From IMG/VR virus record IMGVR_UViG_3300027963_000039: 64,000 nt of DNA. One strand, given 5' to 3'. Numbering within the stretch: position 1 is the stretch's first letter; every line of letters starts with the position of its first letter. The notes beneath the pieces are model-generated. The model had not been told where the DNA came from, ran no database searches, and saw only the letters and a program-made list of their open reading frames with translations. This document shows, in pieces, positions 2,710 to 63,472 of the stretch. The stretch is from a virus. The translations under genes and the position numbers were made by a program.

Positions 2710-3849
2710 ATGTCAACAGTAAAAATATCACAACTACCACTCATTACGGCATTAAATGCTAACACAGCCAATAGTTTGTTTATGGGTGTCGATATTCCAA
2801 CAGGCGTTACGGGTAAATTTACCGCACATACGTTGGCGGCAAACCTTTACTCTAACGAAATATTAAATGTTGGTGTCAATCAACAGAACTTACCTAATAC
2901 GATTGCACAATTTTCTTTGGGTGGCGAATCATATATCCAAACCAACCTCGTCAATACGAATGATGGTGGTACTGCTGACATAGTTGTAACCGCCAACGTA
3001 GGTTCTGGTGGTACGGATGCGGCCAACTTTATCGATATGGGTTATGCAAACAAGAACTATCAACCAGGTTCAGAATTTAATAATATTGGTAATGCGGTTC
3101 GCCCTAATGATGGTTACTTGTATGTACAAGGCACATCAGGTCAAAACTATGGTAACTTGACTATAGGTACCACTAGTGTCGGTGCTAACATAAACTTTAT
3201 TGCTGGCGGTGGTTCTGCACAAAACATCGTTGCAAAAATGACCTCAACTGGTCTAGTGTTGAACACACAATCATCAATTACATTCTCCGATGGTTCTTCA
3301 ATCAATACGGCACCGCCCACACTTACTTACACACAAGGCGTTAATACTTATCAAAATACTTACGCTCAGGCTGCGTTTGCAAAAGCTAATACCGCAGTTC
3401 AAAATACTGCTGTCATCCAACTACAATCGTTGACATTAACTGGTAATAATGATGTTACAGGTACTATAACTGGAAATAACTTTGTTGCAAATACTATTAC
3501 TGTTTCTGGTGTAGTTAATCCACAAAAAGGTTTCATTTACACACCAAACATTTACCCAAATTCACAGACAGCAATTACAATTGACTTTGCAAATAACTCG
3601 GTTGTTCGTGCTCAGACAGCTGCAGGTTTAGTTGTAACATTATCAAACTTTGTAATAGGTAAAGTTGTTGATGCATGGATTACAAATACTGCTGGCACAA
3701 ACCAAACATTTACTCATGGTGTTTCTGCTCTTAATTCAACAATTAATGCGACAACCTATAATATTCCAGGCACATCAACCATCTATGTAAAATACTGGAG
3801 TATTGATGGTACATTAACAAATACTTTCTGTTCGATTGTTCACGCTTAA
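2710..3849 (+). CDS. Virion fibre/structural protein with N-terminal KISQLP motif
   Basis: MSTVKISQLP start, T/N/G-rich beta composition, AQAAFAKANT coiled segment, baseplate context. Confidence 0.6.
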   Translation: MSTVKISQLPLITALNANTANSLFMGVDIPTGVTGKFTAHTLAANLYSNEILNVGVNQQNLPNTIAQFSLGGESYIQTNLVNTNDGGTADIVVTANVGSGGTDAANFIDMGYANKNYQPGSEFNNIGNAVRPNDGYLYVQGTSGQNYGNLTIGTTSVGANINFIAGGGSAQNIVAKMTSTGLVLNTQSSITFSDGSSINTAPPTLTYTQGVNTYQNTYAQAAFAKANTAVQNTAVIQLQSLTLTGNNDVTGTITGNNFVANTITVSGVVNPQKGFIYTPNIYPNSQTAITIDFANNSVVRAQTAAGLVVTLSNFVIGKVVDAWITNTAGTNQTFTHGVSALNSTINATTYNIPGTSTIYVKYWSIDGTLTNTFCSIVHA

Positions 3850-5227: not shown

Positions 5228-8200
5228 ATGGCTCTGAATTTTAACGTAGACCCGTATTATGACGATTTTGATCCGTCTAAAAATTTCCATCGCATACTTT
5301 TTAAACCAGGTGCTGCTGTACAAGCTCGGGAATTAACTCAATCCCAGACAATTTTACAGAATCAAATATCAAATTTTGCCGACAGCATTTTTTCTCAGAA
5401 CACACCTGTTACTGGCGGTAAAGTAACAACGAATTTAAATTGTCATTACTTAAAATTAAATCTACAATACAATAACGTCAACATTAGTGCAGCTTCTTTC
5501 TTGAATAAAATCATTCAAGATTCTACTGGTACAATTATTGCAAAAGTTATTGCTACATCCGAATCTACCGGTACTGTTACTGCTGCAGGTGATCCACCTA
5601 CTTTAATTCTTTCTTACTTATCCGGCATACATTTCTCCGACAATATGTTAATTGTACCAACTGACGGTACAAATATTGGCGCAACAACCATTGGTGCTAC
5701 AGGTGGTACAACTTGTTCTGGTCTTTCTTCTGTTGCTTCTATTTCTGATGGTGTTTTCTATGTTGTAAATGGTTATTCTCAATCATCGACTGCAAACCAA
5801 GACGGAAGCTTTACAAAATATTCAATCGGTAATTTTGTTGCTGTACAACCACAAACAATCATTCTTTCCAAATACGGAAATACACCTTCCTATCGTGTAG
5901 GACTGTCCATAACAGAGACAATTGTAGACTACGTTAATGACTCATCACTATTAGATCCGGCTGTTGGAGCGTCTAATTACCAGGCTCCTGGTGCTGATAG
6001 ATATGCAATCATTCTTTCATTAATTGCTTTGCCTTTATCTTTAGGTAGTGATGATGCGTTTATTGAATTGTTGAGAATGGAAAATGGTGATATATTAAAA
6101 CAAGTCGATAATACTGTTTATTCGGTAATCGATGATTATTTTGCTAAGCGTGATTATGAAAGTAACGGCGATTATATTGTTAATGATTTCAAATTAACTC
6201 CATCAGCCAATACTTCCGATGGTGCAAAATATAATTTAAGTGTTGGTAAAGGTGTTGCATATGTACATGGTTATCGTATAGAGAACCAATCACCATTAAC
6301 TATTGTTAGTGACAGAGCTCGTGCAACAAAAACAATTGATACAAACAACGTTTATTTGGACTACGGAAACTATTTCTATATTGATACGTCCAATGGTTCT
6401 TTTGATATCACCACGATGCCTGTTGTTGATTTGCATTGCGTAGAATCAATCAACATTTCCGCAAACAACAATGGTGGTTCAGCTAACGCAAACACATATT
6501 CATCAACTTTAGTTGGTACTGCTCGCATTAGAGACTTGCAATATGTGACGGATGGTGGCAGTTCAAATACAAAATCATATGTTTATCAAGCATATGTTTC
6601 AGACATTTCAACCAGAACAATTTCAGGCGTAGCCAAAGTTTCTGGTTCTTCTGTAACAACTTTGGCTATTGATGATGGTAGTCGTGCAAACTTTTCCACA
6701 TCAGCCAACGCATACTATGGAATGACAGTCACTATAACTGGTGGTACATCCTCAGGTGACATCCGCACCATTTCTTCATATAATGGAACAACAAAAGTAA
6801 TTACTGTTACATCTCCGTTCACTTTTGTTCCTGATGCAACCACTCAATTCAAATTAACTTTAACACCAAAGAGTGTCGAGTCTATTGTTGTTAAAGATGC
6901 TGCATATTCTTTCTCTGCAAACTCCAATATTAATACCATTTACGGTAAACAAAGTGCTGTAGTAACTGGTGACACCGTGTTAACAAATCCTGGATATCCA
7001 GAGATGGTTTTCACAATTGGTAATCCATATGTTGCGAATGTATCTAGTTCCAGTTACACATCAACAAAGATTTATCGTAACCAAGCGATCTCAAACACAG
7101 TACCATTAACCATATCCGCAACAGGAACATTTACTTTCATCGGTAATGGTGCATTAAGTTCTGATGCAAAGAAACAAAACTTTATTGTTGTCAGCAAAAC
7201 GACAGGCCAAATATTGGATTTCTCGACAACTGGTAATACAATTACTGTAACAAGTGGAACACAAGCAACGTTTTCGACCACGAAATGGAATGATACAGTT
7301 GATATTATTGCAAACATTAATATTCCATATGCAGATCATGCTACGGATGGTGGTCTGGTATTAAAATCTAAAAACTTAGTTACTGGTAATACGACAGCTG
7401 TTGGAACATTAACTGCTGTAACAGGCACATCAAATACAACAATTGATTTGACAAAAGGTCAAACGTATATTACTAACGCAACAACTAGAAACCCACAAAT
7501 TTCGTTGTATGTTTCAGATGTTAAGAAAATTAAAAAGATTATTGACACAGGTGCTCCAGGTACTGCGCCAACAGCAGCAATGCTAACTGCTGCTCAGTAT
7601 GATGTAACAAATCAATATACACTAAACAATGGCCAAAAAGATAGTTTTTATGACCATGCTTATTTGAAACCTTTAGTTGGTGCAGCAAAAGGCAATTTGT
7701 TGGTGGTCTATGATTTCTACACACATGGCGGTGGTGATGGTTACTTTAGTGTATTATCATATCAAGCTACTGGCGGCGGTTTCTCAACATCGCCAGAGAC
7801 ATATTCGGAAATTGGAAGTTACACAGCTTCATCAGGTAAAACATATCGTTTAGCTGATTGTTTAGATTTTAGACCAGTTAGAACAAACGCAACAACAGCA
7901 ACTACTTTCAACTATCAGAATTCTTCTGCTTCAAGAGGTATGTTGTTGCCACAAAACTTGACACAATTCCAAAGTTCTTATGCTTACTATCTTGGAAGAA
8001 AAGATATATTGGTATTGAGTAAAGACAAGAGTTTTGAAATCATCCAAGGTGTTCCATCTTTAACTCCTATATTCCCAATACAACCAGAAGGTTCATTGTT
8101 ATTAGCTAATCTAACACATGATCCATATACTGCTTATGTTCCTGGTGAAAATCCAGGAAGTATAGTTTCGAACCTATCGATGAATAAGGTTTCACACAAT

Positions 8201-10072: not shown

Positions 10073-12235
10073 ATGGCTCTATCCTCAGCAATTTATAATT
10101 ATAATTCAACAATAACTTCTTATAATGGGGTGACCAAGGTCGCCACATTGAGTTCGCCTGTAGAAATTTCTTTAGGTTACAACAACACACTAGGACAATT
10201 AACTTCTCAGTACACTTTATCAGGTGATAACACAAGCGTTCTTGCAGCTATCAAAGATGGCACAAAACCACAACAGTTGTCTACTGACGAAAACGGAAGC
10301 TTTTATGGTATTTTAAATGTGCCGCCAGGAATATTTAAAGTTGGTTCTAGAGTGTTTCGTGTTGATAATAGGACAGTTGATGCCGATCTTTCAACTGCAA
10401 CAACTTATGCTGAAGCAACATTTACGGCAGCTGGACTTTCCACAACATCTCAAGCTTTACAATTTAGTCCTTCTGTAGATTCTGCATCAAATAAATTTAC
10501 ACCTACACAGTACCAGTCACAACAACAAATTAGTACTATTGCAAGTTATACAAATTTTGATCCAGTTGCACAATCATTTATCATTTCTAAAGATAATTAT
10601 CCAAACGGTGTCTATATCTTATCTGTAAAACTTTTCTTTAGATCAAAACCAACAACAACAAATACGCCAGTGATTGTATCGATTGTTCCAACTCTCAATG
10701 GTTACCCTAATGGTAACGCATTAGACTATTCCACAGTATCTTTGTATGCAGATCAAATTCAAACAAGCACATCTCCACACTTTTTGGATGCATCAACATA
10801 CACAGAATTTATGTTCAAAGCTCCTGTTTATATCAAGCCAGGAGAAACTTATGCGGTGTTAATTCAAACCAGTTCACCGGATTATACTGTTTATTATGCC
10901 CAACAAAATTCTTCGGCAGTAGCTTCAACTGCAAGAGCTCTACCTACAGATGCAATACCATCCAACCCAACAAAAATTGGTGCAGTACCAAATAGTGGTG
11001 CTTTCTTTGAATCACAAAACGGAACAACTTGGACTGCTGATCTGACAAAAGACCTGATGTTCGTTATTGATAGGTGTGTTTTCAACACTTCAAATAATCC
11101 AAAATTAGACTTTGTTGTTCCACAGAATTTACCTAAGAGAAAATTACTGGCAAGTGATATTCAATACAAATTAGATCCAAGTTTGATTAATGGTATATAC
11201 CGTAGTGCTGGTGGTGATCAAAGAATGGATGCTTTGAATGTTACAACTACAGATTTTACGCCGACTAGTACAACAATTAATTATGCATACACATCTACAA
11301 TAAGAGATGGAAATGTTTCTGATGGTCCAAACACAATCATTCCTGGAAAATTTGGTTCTCCAACACCAGACAATGTATATTTGGATGACGGACTAGGTTC
11401 ACGTATTTTATTATCAAACTCAAATAATTCGTTTACACTATCAGCAACACTCTCATCTTCTGATTCTGCTGTAAGTCCTATCATTTCTGACGATGGATTA
11501 ACATTGTTTAATGTTCGATATGTAATTAATAATATGGGACTTTCAAATCCTACAATTTCAGTTGCCAATACTGGAACAGGATACAACGCAAATACCGTTT
11601 CCGTATCTGTAAGTTCACCAGATGTTGGTTCTGATATTGCGGTGTGTACAGCAAATGTACAAGGCGGAAACGTTGTCGCCGTGGCTGTAACTTATGGTGG
11701 TTCGGGTTACTTAAAGACTCCAACAATTACAGTATCCGATGCAGCAACCCGTGGCGGTAATGCAAACTGTGTAGTAGTTGTTTCAGGTGAAACAAGTCCA
11801 GAAGGCGGTAACGCACTTGCAAAATACTTCACAAAGAAAGTTGTGTTGGCTGCAGGACAAGATTCTGGTGATTTGCGTGTATATTACTCAGCATACAAAC
11901 CAGTAGGTACAGAAGTTTACATTTATTACAAACTTTTAAGTAGTAATGATACACAAAAATTTGAAGAAGGCAATTGGCAATTGATGACCCAAGTTGGTCC
12001 ACAAAATGTTTATTCTTCTAATAGAGATGACATTATTGAATTTGAATGTGCTCCTGGAGTTTATGGAAGTGGTGCAGCAAATAATATTATTTCTTATACC
12101 GGTATTAACGGTCAAACATACAACGACTTTATTCAGTTTGCGATTAAACTTGTTATGGCAACAAATGATACTACCAAAGTTCCCGTGATTGAAGATATTC
12201 GTGCGTTGGCTTTACCACCAGGAACAGGAATTTAA
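10073..12235 (+). CDS. DUF4815/VrlC-like protein, C-terminal part (separate ORF)
   Basis: DPVAQSF..LFFRSKP, FESQNGTTWT..DLMF and terminal FAIKLVM..VPVIEDIRALAL motifs, which normally end the VrlC-like protein. Confidence 0.75.
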   Translation: MALSSAIYNYNSTITSYNGVTKVATLSSPVEISLGYNNTLGQLTSQYTLSGDNTSVLAAIKDGTKPQQLSTDENGSFYGILNVPPGIFKVGSRVFRVDNRTVDADLSTATTYAEATFTAAGLSTTSQALQFSPSVDSASNKFTPTQYQSQQQISTIASYTNFDPVAQSFIISKDNYPNGVYILSVKLFFRSKPTTTNTPVIVSIVPTLNGYPNGNALDYSTVSLYADQIQTSTSPHFLDASTYTEFMFKAPVYIKPGETYAVLIQTSSPDYTVYYAQQNSSAVASTARALPTDAIPSNPTKIGAVPNSGAFFESQNGTTWTADLTKDLMFVIDRCVFNTSNNPKLDFVVPQNLPKRKLLASDIQYKLDPSLINGIYRSAGGDQRMDALNVTTTDFTPTSTTINYAYTSTIRDGNVSDGPNTIIPGKFGSPTPDNVYLDDGLGSRILLSNSNNSFTLSATLSSSDSAVSPIISDDGLTLFNVRYVINNMGLSNPTISVANTGTGYNANTVSVSVSSPDVGSDIAVCTANVQGGNVVAVAVTYGGSGYLKTPTITVSDAATRGGNANCVVVVSGETSPEGGNALAKYFTKKVVLAAGQDSGDLRVYYSAYKPVGTEVYIYYKLLSSNDTQKFEEGNWQLMTQVGPQNVYSSNRDDIIEFECAPGVYGSGAANNIISYTGINGQTYNDFIQFAIKLVMATNDTTKVPVIEDIRALALPPGTGI

Positions 12236-50020: not shown

Positions 50021-50592
50021 GTGATACAATTGTTTTTAATACGGAAGATACATTAAAAGGTACCAGTTATGCTAAAACTTTTTCTATACCTTTGTTTGAT
50101 TTGGTAGGAGAAGATAATCCAATTCTCAAAGAAGTTATGCCAGAATTTGATTTTAAAAATGCTCCTGTAAATCCTATGGAATTCGCATCTTCTTTGGTTG
50201 AAACCTGCAAGAAACACAAAGGATATGGATTGTCTGCCAACCAATGCGGTTTTAGGTATCGAGTATTCGTTATGGGTGCCGAAGATAACTTTGTGGCATT
50301 CTTTAATCCAAAAATTACCGCAACATATGATGAGTCACATATTGTTGAAGGATGCCTATCTTTCCCATTACTAGGACTTAGAATTACCAGGCCAGCGGCC
50401 GTAGATGTAGAATACCAAGATTTTAATGGAGAAAATAAAACGGCACATTATACTGGTATATCTGCAAGATGTTTCCTTCATGAGCTTGACCACATGAACG
50501 GAGTAGTATATACTGAAAGAGTGAAACCACTTGCGTTGCAAATGGGTATGCAGAAGCGTAACAAACTAATCAAGAAATTGCGTATAAAATAA
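50017..50592 (+). CDS. def: Peptide deformylase
   Basis: GLSANQ, EGCLS, HELDH motifs. Confidence 0.93.
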   Translation: MSDTIVFNTEDTLKGTSYAKTFSIPLFDLVGEDNPILKEVMPEFDFKNAPVNPMEFASSLVETCKKHKGYGLSANQCGFRYRVFVMGAEDNFVAFFNPKITATYDESHIVEGCLSFPLLGLRITRPAAVDVEYQDFNGENKTAHYTGISARCFLHELDHMNGVVYTERVKPLALQMGMQKRNKLIKKLRIK

Positions 50593-51857
50593 TGGCGACA
50601 CCAGTTGAATTTGTGGACAAACAATGGGTAGAATGGCAAGAGTCCAACCCAACAAGTAAGTTTGAACACATAGATAAAGAAGAATTGACCAAGACTCTAA
50701 TTGGAGACTTGACCAAAGCTTCTCAAATGGATGTTCGTGAATATACTTTATACCAAAAATGGTGTGAAGTTAAAGAACGATATCCCGTCTTTGAGGCCTC
50801 AACTCTTTGGGGTACAGAAGTCCAGATGGTTAATCCTGAGCAAAAAGAATTGATTGAAAAAGTCAAATCTAATTTTTGGATGCCAGAATCACCTGACGAT
50901 TTTGAAAAATTAAAACCTGTGATGAAATTATCAAACGGTCCATTGGCAGAAACTTGGAATGCCATACGTACCTTTTCATCCACAATGAAAAACAATTCTA
51001 ACATTGGTCGTAATCTATTTTATACGGTTACTGATGATGTGACAGGTAAATATCTTGGTGTTATTTGTATATCATCAGATTTTTTAGACTTAACTCCAAG
51101 AGACAAGGCCATCGGTTGGTCAAGAGAAGTTAAGACACAACAAGGCATGATTAATCACACCGCAATTGGTTCTACTATCGTGCCCCTACAACCTTTGGGG
51201 TTTAATTATATGGGCGGTAAATTACTTGCCTTGTTGTGCCTTTCTGATACCGTCCAAAAAGACTGGAAAGAACGATATGACGATGTTCTAGTCGGAGTGA
51301 CTACCACATCACTTTATGGTGCTACGAAGGCTGGAGGCCTATCCCAATACGATGGACTCGAACATTGGAATAAAATGGGTTTTAGTTCGGGTTCGGTTGC
51401 GTTTGAACCATCTAGAAAAACTATGAATATGGTATTTGATTGGATTAAAGAAAATCATACTCGTAAATATTTTGAATGGTGGGAAGCCAAAAATCAAAAT
51501 GGTTTACCACTTAAACGTGACCATAAAAATAGATCATTGAACTTTGCCTACCCAAAATTAGGTATCGATAAAAAATTAATTCGTACCGAACATCAACGTG
51601 GTATCTATTTTAGTCCTCTCTATAATAATACCAATGAATTTCTCCGTAAGGAGATTACCGATTCTGATCTGGTAAAATCGTTTGATACCAGTGAAGAAGC
51701 CCTTGCCAATATTTGGAAAACCAAGTATGCTAAGGGTCGAATTAGGCAATTACAGAAAAAGAATAATGTTTCTTACGATTCTCTTTTCTATGATGACCTG
51801 ATTTATTTGTCTTGGGAAGAAACCAAGGCAAAATATCTACCACAAGTCGGTAGATAA
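50592..51857 (+). CDS. DruA/DUF4338-like protein
   Basis: GRNLFY..LGVICISSD..RDKAIGW, PLGFNYMGGKLLALL, TTSLYG..SQY. Confidence 0.65.
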   Translation: MATPVEFVDKQWVEWQESNPTSKFEHIDKEELTKTLIGDLTKASQMDVREYTLYQKWCEVKERYPVFEASTLWGTEVQMVNPEQKELIEKVKSNFWMPESPDDFEKLKPVMKLSNGPLAETWNAIRTFSSTMKNNSNIGRNLFYTVTDDVTGKYLGVICISSDFLDLTPRDKAIGWSREVKTQQGMINHTAIGSTIVPLQPLGFNYMGGKLLALLCLSDTVQKDWKERYDDVLVGVTTTSLYGATKAGGLSQYDGLEHWNKMGFSSGSVAFEPSRKTMNMVFDWIKENHTRKYFEWWEAKNQNGLPLKRDHKNRSLNFAYPKLGIDKKLIRTEHQRGIYFSPLYNNTNEFLRKEITDSDLVKSFDTSEEALANIWKTKYAKGRIRQLQKKNNVSYDSLFYDDLIYLSWEETKAKYLPQVGR

Positions 51858-61630: not shown

Positions 61631-62179
61631 ATGAAACTGAGCATAATCGGATGTCCTGAAAAGAAAAAATTTCGTCCCTACGTTAAAAAAGCAGCATTAT
61701 TCTATGCTGATCTGTTGTTCACACAAAAAATGACGGAAAATCTTTTTTTGCAAATCAAATTTAATAAAAAAATTGATGTGTTTGGATATGCATCAATTAC
61801 TGGTTATAATGATAGTGCTAAACCTAGAGATTTTTTAATTGAACTAAATCCAAATGTTGCCGCTTATGATATATTGAAAACGTTAGCCCATGAAATGGTT
61901 CACGTAAAACAATATGCATATTCAGAAATGGATGAAAAAGGATTAAGATGGAAGGGATCACATGTTGATCCTTCAAAAACAGATTATTGGACTGAACCGT
62001 GGGAAGTAGAAGCTTATGGTTTAGAACCTGGAATGTTTACAAAGTTTGCAGTTAAAGAAAAATTGTGGACAGTATTTAAAAACGTTACTAATCCAAATGA
62101 TATAATAAAGCCGGAACCTTTAGGGTTCTTGGAAGAAACTGTTGTTGCAGAAATACAACAAATAGAAAATAATGCTTGA
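61631..62179 (+). CDS. Zincin-like metallopeptidase domain protein
   Basis: TLAHEMVHVKQY and PWEVEAY. Confidence 0.75.
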   Translation: MKLSIIGCPEKKKFRPYVKKAALFYADLLFTQKMTENLFLQIKFNKKIDVFGYASITGYNDSAKPRDFLIELNPNVAAYDILKTLAHEMVHVKQYAYSEMDEKGLRWKGSHVDPSKTDYWTEPWEVEAYGLEPGMFTKFAVKEKLWTVFKNVTNPNDIIKPEPLGFLEETVVAEIQQIENNA

Positions 62180-62203
62180 CAATTTTATTGGTTTGTGTAG
62201 AAT
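62176..62203 (+). promoter_or_regulatory. tRNA array promoter 1
   Basis: TTGACA-16 nt-TAGAAT just upstream of the first tRNA. Confidence 0.7.
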
Positions 62204-62211
62204 AGATATAT

Positions 62212-62482: not shown

Positions 62483-62559
62483 GTGGGTGTGCAGCTGAAT
62501 GGTTAGGCACCGGATTGCAAATCCGTATTATGCAGGTTCGAGTCCTGTCACCCACTCCA
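62483..62559 (+). tRNA. tRNA-Cys(GCA)
   Basis: Loop TTGCAAA, U discriminator, CCA. Confidence 0.88.
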
Positions 62560-62596
62560 AGTTTGTTGTTTAAATACAACACCCAGTAAAAAGTGC

Positions 62597-62664
62597 TTGA
62601 CAATTTTACTGGTTCGTGTACAATACGTACTATCGATTGAGAAATCAATCATTGTTCTTTAAAA
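62597..62664 (+). promoter_or_regulatory. tRNA array promoter 2 with boxB-like hairpin and boxA-like element
   Basis: TTGACA-16 nt-TACAAT; GATTGA-GAAA-TCAATC 62635-50; TGTTCTTTAAAA 62653-64. Confidence 0.65.
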
Positions 62665-62680
62665 GTTTGATGCAGTATGT

Positions 62681-62756
62681 GCTCGGTTCATCTAGTGGCC
62701 TAGGATAGTGCCCTTTCACGGCATTCACACCGGTTCGAATCCGGTACCGAGTACCA
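62681..62756 (+). tRNA. tRNA-Glu(UUC)
   Basis: Loop CTTTCAC, ACCGG-TTCGAAT-CCGGT, CCA. Confidence 0.92.
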
Positions 62757-62949
62757 TATTAAAGTTTATTGCGTTGACAAGTCCATTAGGGGATTGTTCA
62801 AGATAACGGGACGGCGGTCACCGGTCTATGAACACTCATGATAGCCGTTACGAAGGTGATGGGTTGCTTGTTTGTAATGACCGCATACAGCGCAGGATCG
62901 CAGCCTGTGAAAAAGAAGTATGCAAGGTTCGCAATAAATTTTAATATGG
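62757..62949 (+). ncRNA. Putative structured ncRNA A closed by a ~20-bp stem
   Basis: 62754-62773 complements 62930-62949 (one G-U); GC-rich interior with several helices. Confidence 0.6.
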
Positions 62950-62970
62950 TATAATAATGCTTCATAAATT

Positions 62971-63056: not shown

Positions 63057-63139
63057 GCGACTGTGGTGAAATAGGTAAACACAGCAGACTTAAAATCTGC
63101 CGCTTCGGCTTGCCGGTTCGATTCTGGCCAGTCGCACCA
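63057..63139 (+). tRNA. tRNA-Leu(UAA)
   Basis: Loop CTTAAAA, variable arm, ACCA. Confidence 0.93.
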
Positions 63140-63146
63140 AATTGAA

Positions 63147-63240
63147 AGAGTTTTTGGTTGTTCTAAAAAGCAAGGCCACGCTGAAAAGCAAAAAGGTTGA
63201 GCGGAGAACATTAAATGGAGACGACCGCTCCAGCCACTCT
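63147..63240 (+). ncRNA. Putative structured ncRNA B (multiway junction, possible pseudoknot)
   Basis: AGAGT/ACTCT ends; GGTTGAGCGG/CCGCTCCAGCC stem; GTTCT/AGAAC loop complementarity. Confidence 0.4.
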
Positions 63241-63395
63241 ATTTTATAGTTAAGTGTTATCAGGGTATCGTGTATGGACGCATACACTATGCGGGCCTAA
63301 CTGTGCGAGGAACAGGTCCTGAGATAACTGCTATTCGCTTGTCAGTATTAGCTATATTGTTGACAAATCGGCACGATAACACTTAACTATAAAAT
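63241..63395 (+). ncRNA. Putative structured ncRNA C closed by a perfect 21-bp stem
   Basis: ATTTTATAGTTAAGTGTTATC 63241-61 is the exact reverse complement of 63375-95; internal hairpins. Confidence 0.65.
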
Positions 63396-63397
63396 TT

Positions 63398-63472
63398 GGT
63401 CCCATAGTATATCGGTTAGTATAGCGGCTTGTCACGCCGTTGAGGCGAGTTCGACTCTCGCTGGGACCGCCA
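63398..63472 (+). tRNA. tRNA-Asp(GUC)
   Basis: Loop TTGTCAC, GCCA end. Confidence 0.92.

Follow-up and report, generated by a model that had tools for sequence, protein, structure and literature searches.

RNA C, a probable small structured RNA with a long closing stalk and a pseudoknotted head, in the tRNA arrays of uncultured phages

Small structured RNAs encoded in phage transfer RNA (tRNA) clusters are a known kind of gene product, with T4 RNAC and RNAD, GOLLD and ROOL as examples. The T4 tRNA cluster yields RNAC and RNAD, two stable RNAs whose function is unknown after decades (PMC3014915, PMC9697503), and GOLLD and ROOL are ornate, covariation-supported RNAs of phages and prophages that typically lie beside tRNA islands (PMC12286853). 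Examples of phage-encoded Y RNAs exist as well (PMC4201824), and the manA motif, a phage-associated RNA of less than 200 nucleotides (nt), has been shown to self-assemble (bioRxiv 10.64898/2026.07.01.735769). Here, we describe RNA C, an element of 155 nt at positions 63241-63395 of a 64,000-nt stretch of viral DNA (IMG/VR record IMGVR_UViG_3300027963_000039; hereafter the window). These positions probably encode a small, structured non-coding RNA, about 145-157 nt long, that belongs to a large family carried by well over a hundred uncultured T4-like and jumbo phage contigs.

The rnaC and rnaD genes of T4 resemble RNA C in their setting, as both are encoded among the clustered tRNAs of a T4-type phage, share the strand of these tRNAs and adjoin one of them, and they measure 119-139 nt against about 150 nt for RNA C. 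However, T4 rnaC ends in a tRNA-like T-arm without a 21-base-pair (bp) closing stalk, and rnaD folds no better than its shuffled versions, whereas a long clamp and a four-way head with a pseudoknot distinguish RNA C. Since a covariance model of the RNA C family (R1; 155 positions and 46 pairs, with the pseudoknot left out) had no match in T4 68000-76000 at E<=10, and since the folds differ, RNA C was rejected as a homolog of rnaC or rnaD. GOLLD (RF02032) and ROOL, at about 500-800 nt, are 3-5 times larger than RNA C, and manA (RF01745) is found mostly in the 5' untranslated regions of protein genes whereas RNA C sits flush between tRNAs; none of these gave a covariance-model match. The name GOLLD itself records an origin in a lake metagenome. 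An earlier note on the window, made from its letters alone, had called RNA C an unknown RNA and proposed an Rfam search. When run with the Rfam 15 covariance models on both strands of 63141-63397, that search returned no family at E<=1, and on six homolog loci at the same threshold it returned only tRNAs, one GOLLD elsewhere and chance matches.

The ends of RNA C are held together by an exact 21-bp inverted repeat, the stalk P1, in which the 5' arm ATTTTATAGTTAAGTGTTATC (63241-63261) pairs with the 3' arm GATAACACTTAACTATAAAAT (63375-63395); these are positions 1-21 and 135-155 of the element, whose numbering plus 63240 gives the window coordinate. The earlier note had seen this repeat, and had correctly placed its end 2 nt before a tRNA-Asp, which starts at 63398. 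The minimum free energy of the element is -54.4 kcal/mol (z -5.9), and 0 of 200 dinucleotide shuffles folded as well. In the whole window, only two stems reach 16 bp with arms spaced 50-300 nt apart, those of RNA C and of a second element, RNA A (62751-62952), and both lie inside the tRNA array.

The stalk carries a four-way head made of P2, P3 and P5-P6, with a pseudoknot that joins the P3 loop to the stretch linking P5 and P6; all of its parts are read on the plus strand. After the junction J1/2 (AGGGTATC, 63262-63269) comes the P2 hairpin GTGTATG-GACG-CATACAC (63270-63287; element 30-36 with 41-47), which combines a variable stem with a constant GACG tetraloop. The P3 hairpin GGGCCT/AGGTCC (63293-63298 with 63314-63319; element 53-58 with 74-79) includes a conserved G.U pair, G55.U77 (63295 with 63317), and its loop holds the 5' strand of the pseudoknot, GCGAG (63305-63309; element 65-69), which pairs with TTCGC (UUCGC in the RNA) at 63334-63338 (element 94-98). 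The junction J3/5 (TGAGATAAC, 63320-63328; consensus CUnAnAUAAC, mostly invariant) leads into the short helix P5, formed by TGCT (63329-63332; element 89-92) and GGCA (63370-63373; element 130-133). The P6 hairpin, TTGTCAG/TTGACAA (63339-63345 with 63360-63366; element 99-105 with 120-126), is extended by an apical AT/AT and ends in the loop TAGCT.

Several of these helices had been named in the earlier note, which proposed P2 and P3 in the form just given. Its TTGTCAGTA/TGTTGACAA helix is real and corresponds to P6, although in a slightly different register, while a proposed CAGG/CCTG helix is unsupported: it would compete with P1 and P3, and it lies beyond covariation testing because its bases are invariant. 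The pseudoknot and the short P5 are two features that the note had missed. A pairing of J1/2 (GGUAnC) with J3/5 (GAnAUAAC) was considered and set aside, as inspection of the alignments showed variable positions without covariation. Resemblances to the kink-turn, sarcin-ricin, hammerhead (CUGAnGA) and signal recognition particle domain IV motifs were likewise discarded, since these motifs do not fit and Rfam gave no match. Between tRNA-Leu(TAA), which ends at 63139, and tRNA-Asp(GTC) there is no noteworthy open reading frame; the short frame ATGGACGCATACACTATGCGGGCCTAA was rejected as coding since it is not conserved, because the P2 stem changes freely.

To delimit the family, IMG/VR was scanned with the 18-mer GTGTATGGACGCATACAC, which gave 60 loci (L001-L060). 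All 60 are true homologs by blastn, and each contains one strong R1 match. Because selection on GTGTATGGACGCATACAC fixes P2 by construction, a second scan was made in which P2 was left free; it added at least 64 further loci (L062-L125), each with one R1 match, of 97-155 bits where the copy is full-length. Over both collections the full-length copies score 97-166 bits, and the element of the window scores 145 bits (E 5e-40). No second copy was found by R1 in the window, in agreement with the earlier note; within L001-L060 the only further matches were three weak ones (E 0.04-0.16), and exactly one copy is present in each of five large contigs (157-345 kb), of which three reach a CheckV completeness of at least 94%. 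In the nearest virus record, G001, RNA C was not found. Two homologs stand on contigs of metagenome-assembled genomes assigned to Bacteroidota, L157 (Haliscomenobacter sp., 5388-5699) and L158, which may be mis-binned phage contigs or may hint at the host; the order on L157 is tRNA-Glu, RNA C, tRNA-Asp, and a transfer-messenger RNA (tmRNA) is also present. ARAGORN places tmRNA genes near the tRNAs at L043:3596-4134 and L157:2244-2649, with the tags ANDDTFLLAANA and ANDEQFALAA.

Across the family, compensatory base-pair changes exceed what shuffled and slid controls give. In the second set, selected independently of P2 and comprising 59 distinct sequences, 93% of cells form standard pairs and both sides have changed in 37 of the 46 pairs. 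The covariation score of this set is 0.619, compared with 0.199 for shuffles (0 of 500 as high) and 0.08-0.11 when the partners are slid by 1-3 columns. In P1 all 18+3 pairs have changed on both sides, and 97% of the P1 cells are paired across the family. P2, in the same 59 sequences, covaries in six of its seven pairs with 99.3% of cells paired, and its GACG loop is present in every displayed sequence but one. For P3, five of six pairs covary in the MAFFT set, and 98-100% of cells are paired (100% in the second set). The three central pairs of P6 covary strongly, occurring as UA, GC and CG with 27-35 double changes each, and nearly every displayed family member has a GC dinucleotide in or beside the apical loop. 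RNAalifold, applied to the plain MAFFT alignment, independently recovers P1, P2, P3 and P6. The pseudoknot, although absent from the model, occurs in ten strand combinations, among them GCCGG/UCGGC, GCGAG/UUCGC, GCCAU/AUGGC, GCGUG/UACGC, ACCAU/AUGGU and GCUUC/GAAGC; on average its strands form 4.6 of 5 pairs, compared with 3.25 when the partners are shuffled, and 0 of 2000 shuffles reached the observed value.

Outside the helices, about 20 bases are invariant in sets where the search had left them free: G24 and A27 of J1/2 (in the set selected only on the 18-mer), the GACG loop, U48, A49, C79-U80-A82-A84-A86-A87-C88, G97 and A126-A127-U128. The J3/5 bases among them (C79 T80 A82 A84 A86 A87 C88) are invariant in alignment A1. 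This number of fixed head bases far exceeds the needs of a processing signal. The phage of the window is T4-like by its T4-type large terminase, UvsW and Rad50-like ATPase. Its large terminase shares 80% identity with the G006 enzyme but just 31% with those of G002 and G003; the RNA C core nevertheless keeps 77-87% DNA identity among these four phages, all of which carry RNA C. This contrast indicates that RNA C is under very strong purifying selection, or that phages exchange it. The same phage has a 421-amino-acid open reading frame (50592-51857) that matches Pfam DruA, the Druantia defence protein A (E 4e-22).

A phage tRNA array closes the window, and in it ARAGORN finds 11 tRNAs on the plus strand between 62212 and 63808. 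A twelfth, missed by ARAGORN, is found by Rfam at 62485-62554 (42.8 bits) with an apparent GCA (Cys) anticodon. The orientation of RNA C follows that of the tRNAs throughout: in 100 distinct contexts, 1472 tRNAs lie on the RNA C strand and 0 on the opposite strand. The strand is also marked by the G.U pair of P3, which is kept in 38 of 43 and in 59 of 59 sequences of the two sets and which would give a C.A mismatch on the opposite strand. Counted on alignment columns over all helices, G.U outnumbers A.C by 287 to 110.

The contact between RNA C and the tRNAs is close. A tRNA lies flush against at least one end of the stalk in 90 of the 100 contexts, and tRNAs adjoin both ends in 32. Where a tRNA follows downstream (95 contexts), its start lies -2 to +8 nt beyond the stalk in 70. 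In the window this neighbour is tRNA-Asp(GTC) (63398-63472, plus strand), whose RNase P site would set the 3' end of the RNA. The earlier note had proposed as much, and the spacing is consistent with its proposal, which would have the cut itself define the end. Upstream, the flush neighbour is tRNA-Glu in 41 of 52 cases; downstream, tRNA-Asp(GTC) is the commonest one (17 contexts, including the window), and the order Glu-RNA C-Asp recurs. In the window the slot after tRNA-Glu is occupied by RNA A, and RNA C has the position before Asp. The 5' arm includes the 3' NCCA of the upstream tRNA in 40 of the 100 contexts, and in the sequences inspected the 3' arm follows it, with UACCA/UGGUA after Glu and CACCA/UGGUG after Leu.

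A sigma-70-like promoter, TTGACA-16-TACAAT (62597-62624, plus strand), heads the sub-array and lies in a repeated 63-nt module; a further one is found at 62176, also inside that module, and a weaker candidate at 62928-62955. No terminator-like site was found on the plus strand between tRNA-Leu and RNA C. Because promoters lie within the array and no such terminator precedes the element, co-transcription of RNA C with the tRNAs is the simplest reading, and we infer it from the sequence. The 63-nt module itself occurs at 62142-62204 and 62563-62625 (81% identity), each copy heading a tRNA sub-array, and is made up of a hairpin and, after it, a near-consensus sigma-70 promoter (TTGACA-16-TAGAAT or TACAAT). 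The TTGACA/TATAAT-type promoters of the window are unlike those of Bacteroidota. Between tRNA-Leu(TAA) and RNA C lies a 101-nt spacer, RNA B (63140-63240). L043 is the only locus that conserves it (81% over 97 nt), again directly before an RNA C homolog; RNA B is taken as a separate unit because RNA C alone fills the tRNA-tRNA gaps of other phages.

RNA C is not the only element of its kind. A search of 156 loci yielded 85 further distinct elements with closing stems of 16 bp or more. For 64 of the 85 a tRNA is no more than 300 nt away, against an expected share of 35% (p 4e-14). This enrichment supports the earlier suggestion that tRNA arrays have a general way of packaging non-coding RNA cargo within long stems. 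In 36 of the 85 the 5' arm begins with CCA, consistent with the 3' end of an adjoining tRNA, and many enclose unrelated interiors of 72-273 nt between shared arms of the type CCAUAUUGAAACACAUU / AGUGUGUUUCAAUAUGG. The long stems look like a shared wrapper with exchangeable cargo. Some loci hold several such elements, for example L139 at 3547-3621, 6070-6180, 7738-7816 and 10843-10917. RNA A of the window, 200 nt directly after tRNA-Glu, has a 23-bp stalk (TACCATATTAAAG.../...TTTTAATATGGTA), whose 5' arm includes the TACCA of the tRNA, and a minimum free energy of -75.1 kcal/mol (z -7.0). About 80 nt of its 3' part have 78% matches in L079 and L127, and stalks like its own wrap inserts of 214-244 nt in L031, L035, L096, L102 and L145. 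R1 does not match RNA A, which was therefore rejected as a divergent paralog; that the two share an architecture while their sequences are unrelated agrees with the earlier description.

We propose, with a probability of roughly 60%, that RNA C is a stable RNA released from a tRNA polycistron, its ends clamped by P1 and its head binding a partner in trans. Its transcription, processing enzymes, stability and action in trans are inferred. The sigma-70-like promoters of the array would drive transcription of RNA C as part of the tRNA polycistron, and the host enzymes of tRNA maturation would free it. A cut by RNase P at position +1 of tRNA-Asp would leave the stalk with a 2-nt tail, and 3' processing of the upstream unit would set the 5' end. 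The long stalk could then clamp the two ends, shielding them from exonucleases and letting the RNA fold without interference from adjacent tRNAs, and the head, conserved and pseudoknotted, may serve as a trans-acting binding surface for a putative partner, be it a protein, a tRNA or the ribosome.

Several observations weigh against this proposal or temper it. P5 is the weakest of the helices, with weak covariation and 60-83% of cells paired in fixed columns, though the alignments do contain the variants UGCA/UGCA, UGCU/AGCA and UGAC/GUCA. The way the sets were collected accounts in part for the invariant 18-mer of the first set and for the invariant junction motifs of the second. Where the stalk overlaps the CCA of the upstream tRNA, both mature RNAs cannot retain those bases; the order of processing is ambiguous for this reason, and an endonuclease acting on double-stranded RNA may be needed there. 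Finally, three family members had no match by megablast and blastn in 50,697 GenBank/INPHARED phage records, and the family thus seems confined to uncultured phages.

In the main rival reading, the element is instead a module acting in cis, in which a stalk of about 20 bp is a site of the RNase III type that separates the tRNAs and frees the upstream CCA, the enclosed RNA being a by-product or a folding insulator. About 20 bp, or two helical turns, is the usual size of an RNase III substrate. The stalk would be well suited to this role, as it spans 16-25 bp across the family (median 20, about two helical turns) and offers in the window 21 bp of exact pairing, in keeping with the ~20 bp or more of near-perfect double-stranded RNA that marks such a site; its pairing with the upstream NCCA, the partner strand following in the sequences inspected, and the presence of like stalks around many unrelated inserts at tRNAs also fit. 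Yet such a module is missing from most tRNA junctions of these arrays, and a processing signal does not call for a head with a pseudoknot and about 20 invariant unpaired bases, retained by phages whose terminases are 31% identical. No phage RNase III gene was found in the five RNA-C-bearing genomes, in searches that detected their positive controls, so any cut in the stalk would rely on a host enzyme. The complexity and invariance of the head argue against a cis-acting module as the whole story, and we regard it as an unlikely explanation overall.

A bolder idea makes RNA C an active RNA machine of the tRNA array. Its GACG loop might dock on U33-C36 of tRNA-Asp(GUC) and shield or sequester that tRNA, for example from host anticodon nucleases, or the RNA might form an RNA-only oligomer like GOLLD, ROOL and manA; in both forms the CCA-pairing stalk would be a general phage wrapper for many RNAs. 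Taken together we hold this to be a long shot.

Of its two forms, the one in which RNA C assembles with itself into a cage, ring or filament, working as a structure rather than as a ligand of protein, in the manner of GOLLD, ROOL and the manA motif, can draw on precedent. GOLLD and ROOL, found near phage tRNA islands, form nanocages (PMC12286853), and RNAs of less than 200 nt, including the phage-associated manA motif, form 60-mers (bioRxiv 10.64898/2026.07.01.735769). Several P6 loops contain palindromic tetramers (AGCU here; UGCA, UCGA and GCGC elsewhere), although the commonest P6 loop, AAGCA, is not self-complementary. A GOLLD RNA shares an array with an RNA C homolog: at L110:1587-2052, about 900 nt downstream of the homolog, it scores 197.6 bits, above the gathering score, and contains an embedded tRNA. 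GOLLD was undetected in the five RNA-C-bearing genomes, in a search run without a positive control, and RNA C has no Rfam match to GOLLD, ROOL or manA. Self-assembly on its own is improbable.

The other form, in which the GACG loop pairs with U33-C36 of tRNA-Asp(GUC) in the manner of a T-box specifier so that RNA C senses, protects or sequesters the tRNA, starts from the loop itself. GACG, an Asp codon followed by a purine, is kept in all displayed sequences but one while the stem beneath it varies freely, and tRNA-Asp(GTC) is, as described above, the commonest flush downstream neighbour in a recurring Glu-RNA C-Asp order. The anticodon loop of the window tRNA-Asp reads TTGTCAC. The GACG loop of the window (63277-63280) can pair with U33-G34-U35-C36 of the neighbouring tRNA-Asp(GUC) if one wobble is allowed, a match that could be chance. 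However, a 4-nt loop makes a poor kissing partner, and each array holds about 25 tRNAs, enough to make a codon match by chance likely. The neighbourhood may simply be inherited gene order, and RNA C has no other T-box feature and no Rfam T-box match. We consider a tRNA-binding role of this kind very doubtful.

Still less credible is a Y-RNA-like role, in which RNA C would partner Ro60 (TROVE) and tether it to an exonuclease for RNA quality control. The general layout of Y RNAs, a long stem of the 5' and 3' ends with a structured head, is indeed that of RNA C (PMC4201824), and YrlA (RF02553) shares it. Unlike YrlA, RNA C has a perfect stalk of freely varying sequence in place of the conserved bulged Ro-binding helix, and its head lacks the tRNA-like domain with its T-arm. 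The YrlA covariance model does not match the element, and genes for Ro60/TROVE and RtcB were found in 0 of the five RNA-C-bearing phage genomes, where positive controls were detected.

An element acting at the level of DNA, either a recombination or replication signal or something like a miniature inverted-repeat transposable element (MITE), the alternative weighed in the earlier note, has in its favour the formal presence of terminal inverted repeats, the different tRNAs adjoined in different phages and the shared arms and several copies per locus of other stem-wrapped elements, but is largely refuted by the conserved G.U, the constant tRNA orientation, the single copy in the window, per locus and per genome in the five 157-345 kb contigs, the flanks read (...CCACTCT before the element and TTGGTCCC after it), which show no direct repeat or target-site duplication, just as that note had seen, the arms of relatives that run into the tRNA's own CCA, and the compensatory changes in internal helices and a pseudoknot that a DNA element does not need.

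RNA C as a stable, trans-acting RNA of the tRNA array, the reading that we prefer, has a bearing on the old puzzle of the extra small RNAs in phage tRNA clusters. The family, its fold and its CCA-pairing stalk were not found in Rfam or in the searchable literature, and RNA C went unnoticed because it is absent from Rfam and from cultured phages. It is a good entry to that puzzle, being widespread, present once per genome, extremely conserved and intricately folded, and its level of constraint is typical of ribozymes, riboswitch aptamers or scaffolds that bind protein or RNA tightly. Moreover, a common stalk, often pairing with the CCA of the preceding tRNA, embeds diverse RNAs in phage tRNA operons. 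This arrangement could represent a processing principle of these phages, and could also provide a useful scaffold for RNA expression.

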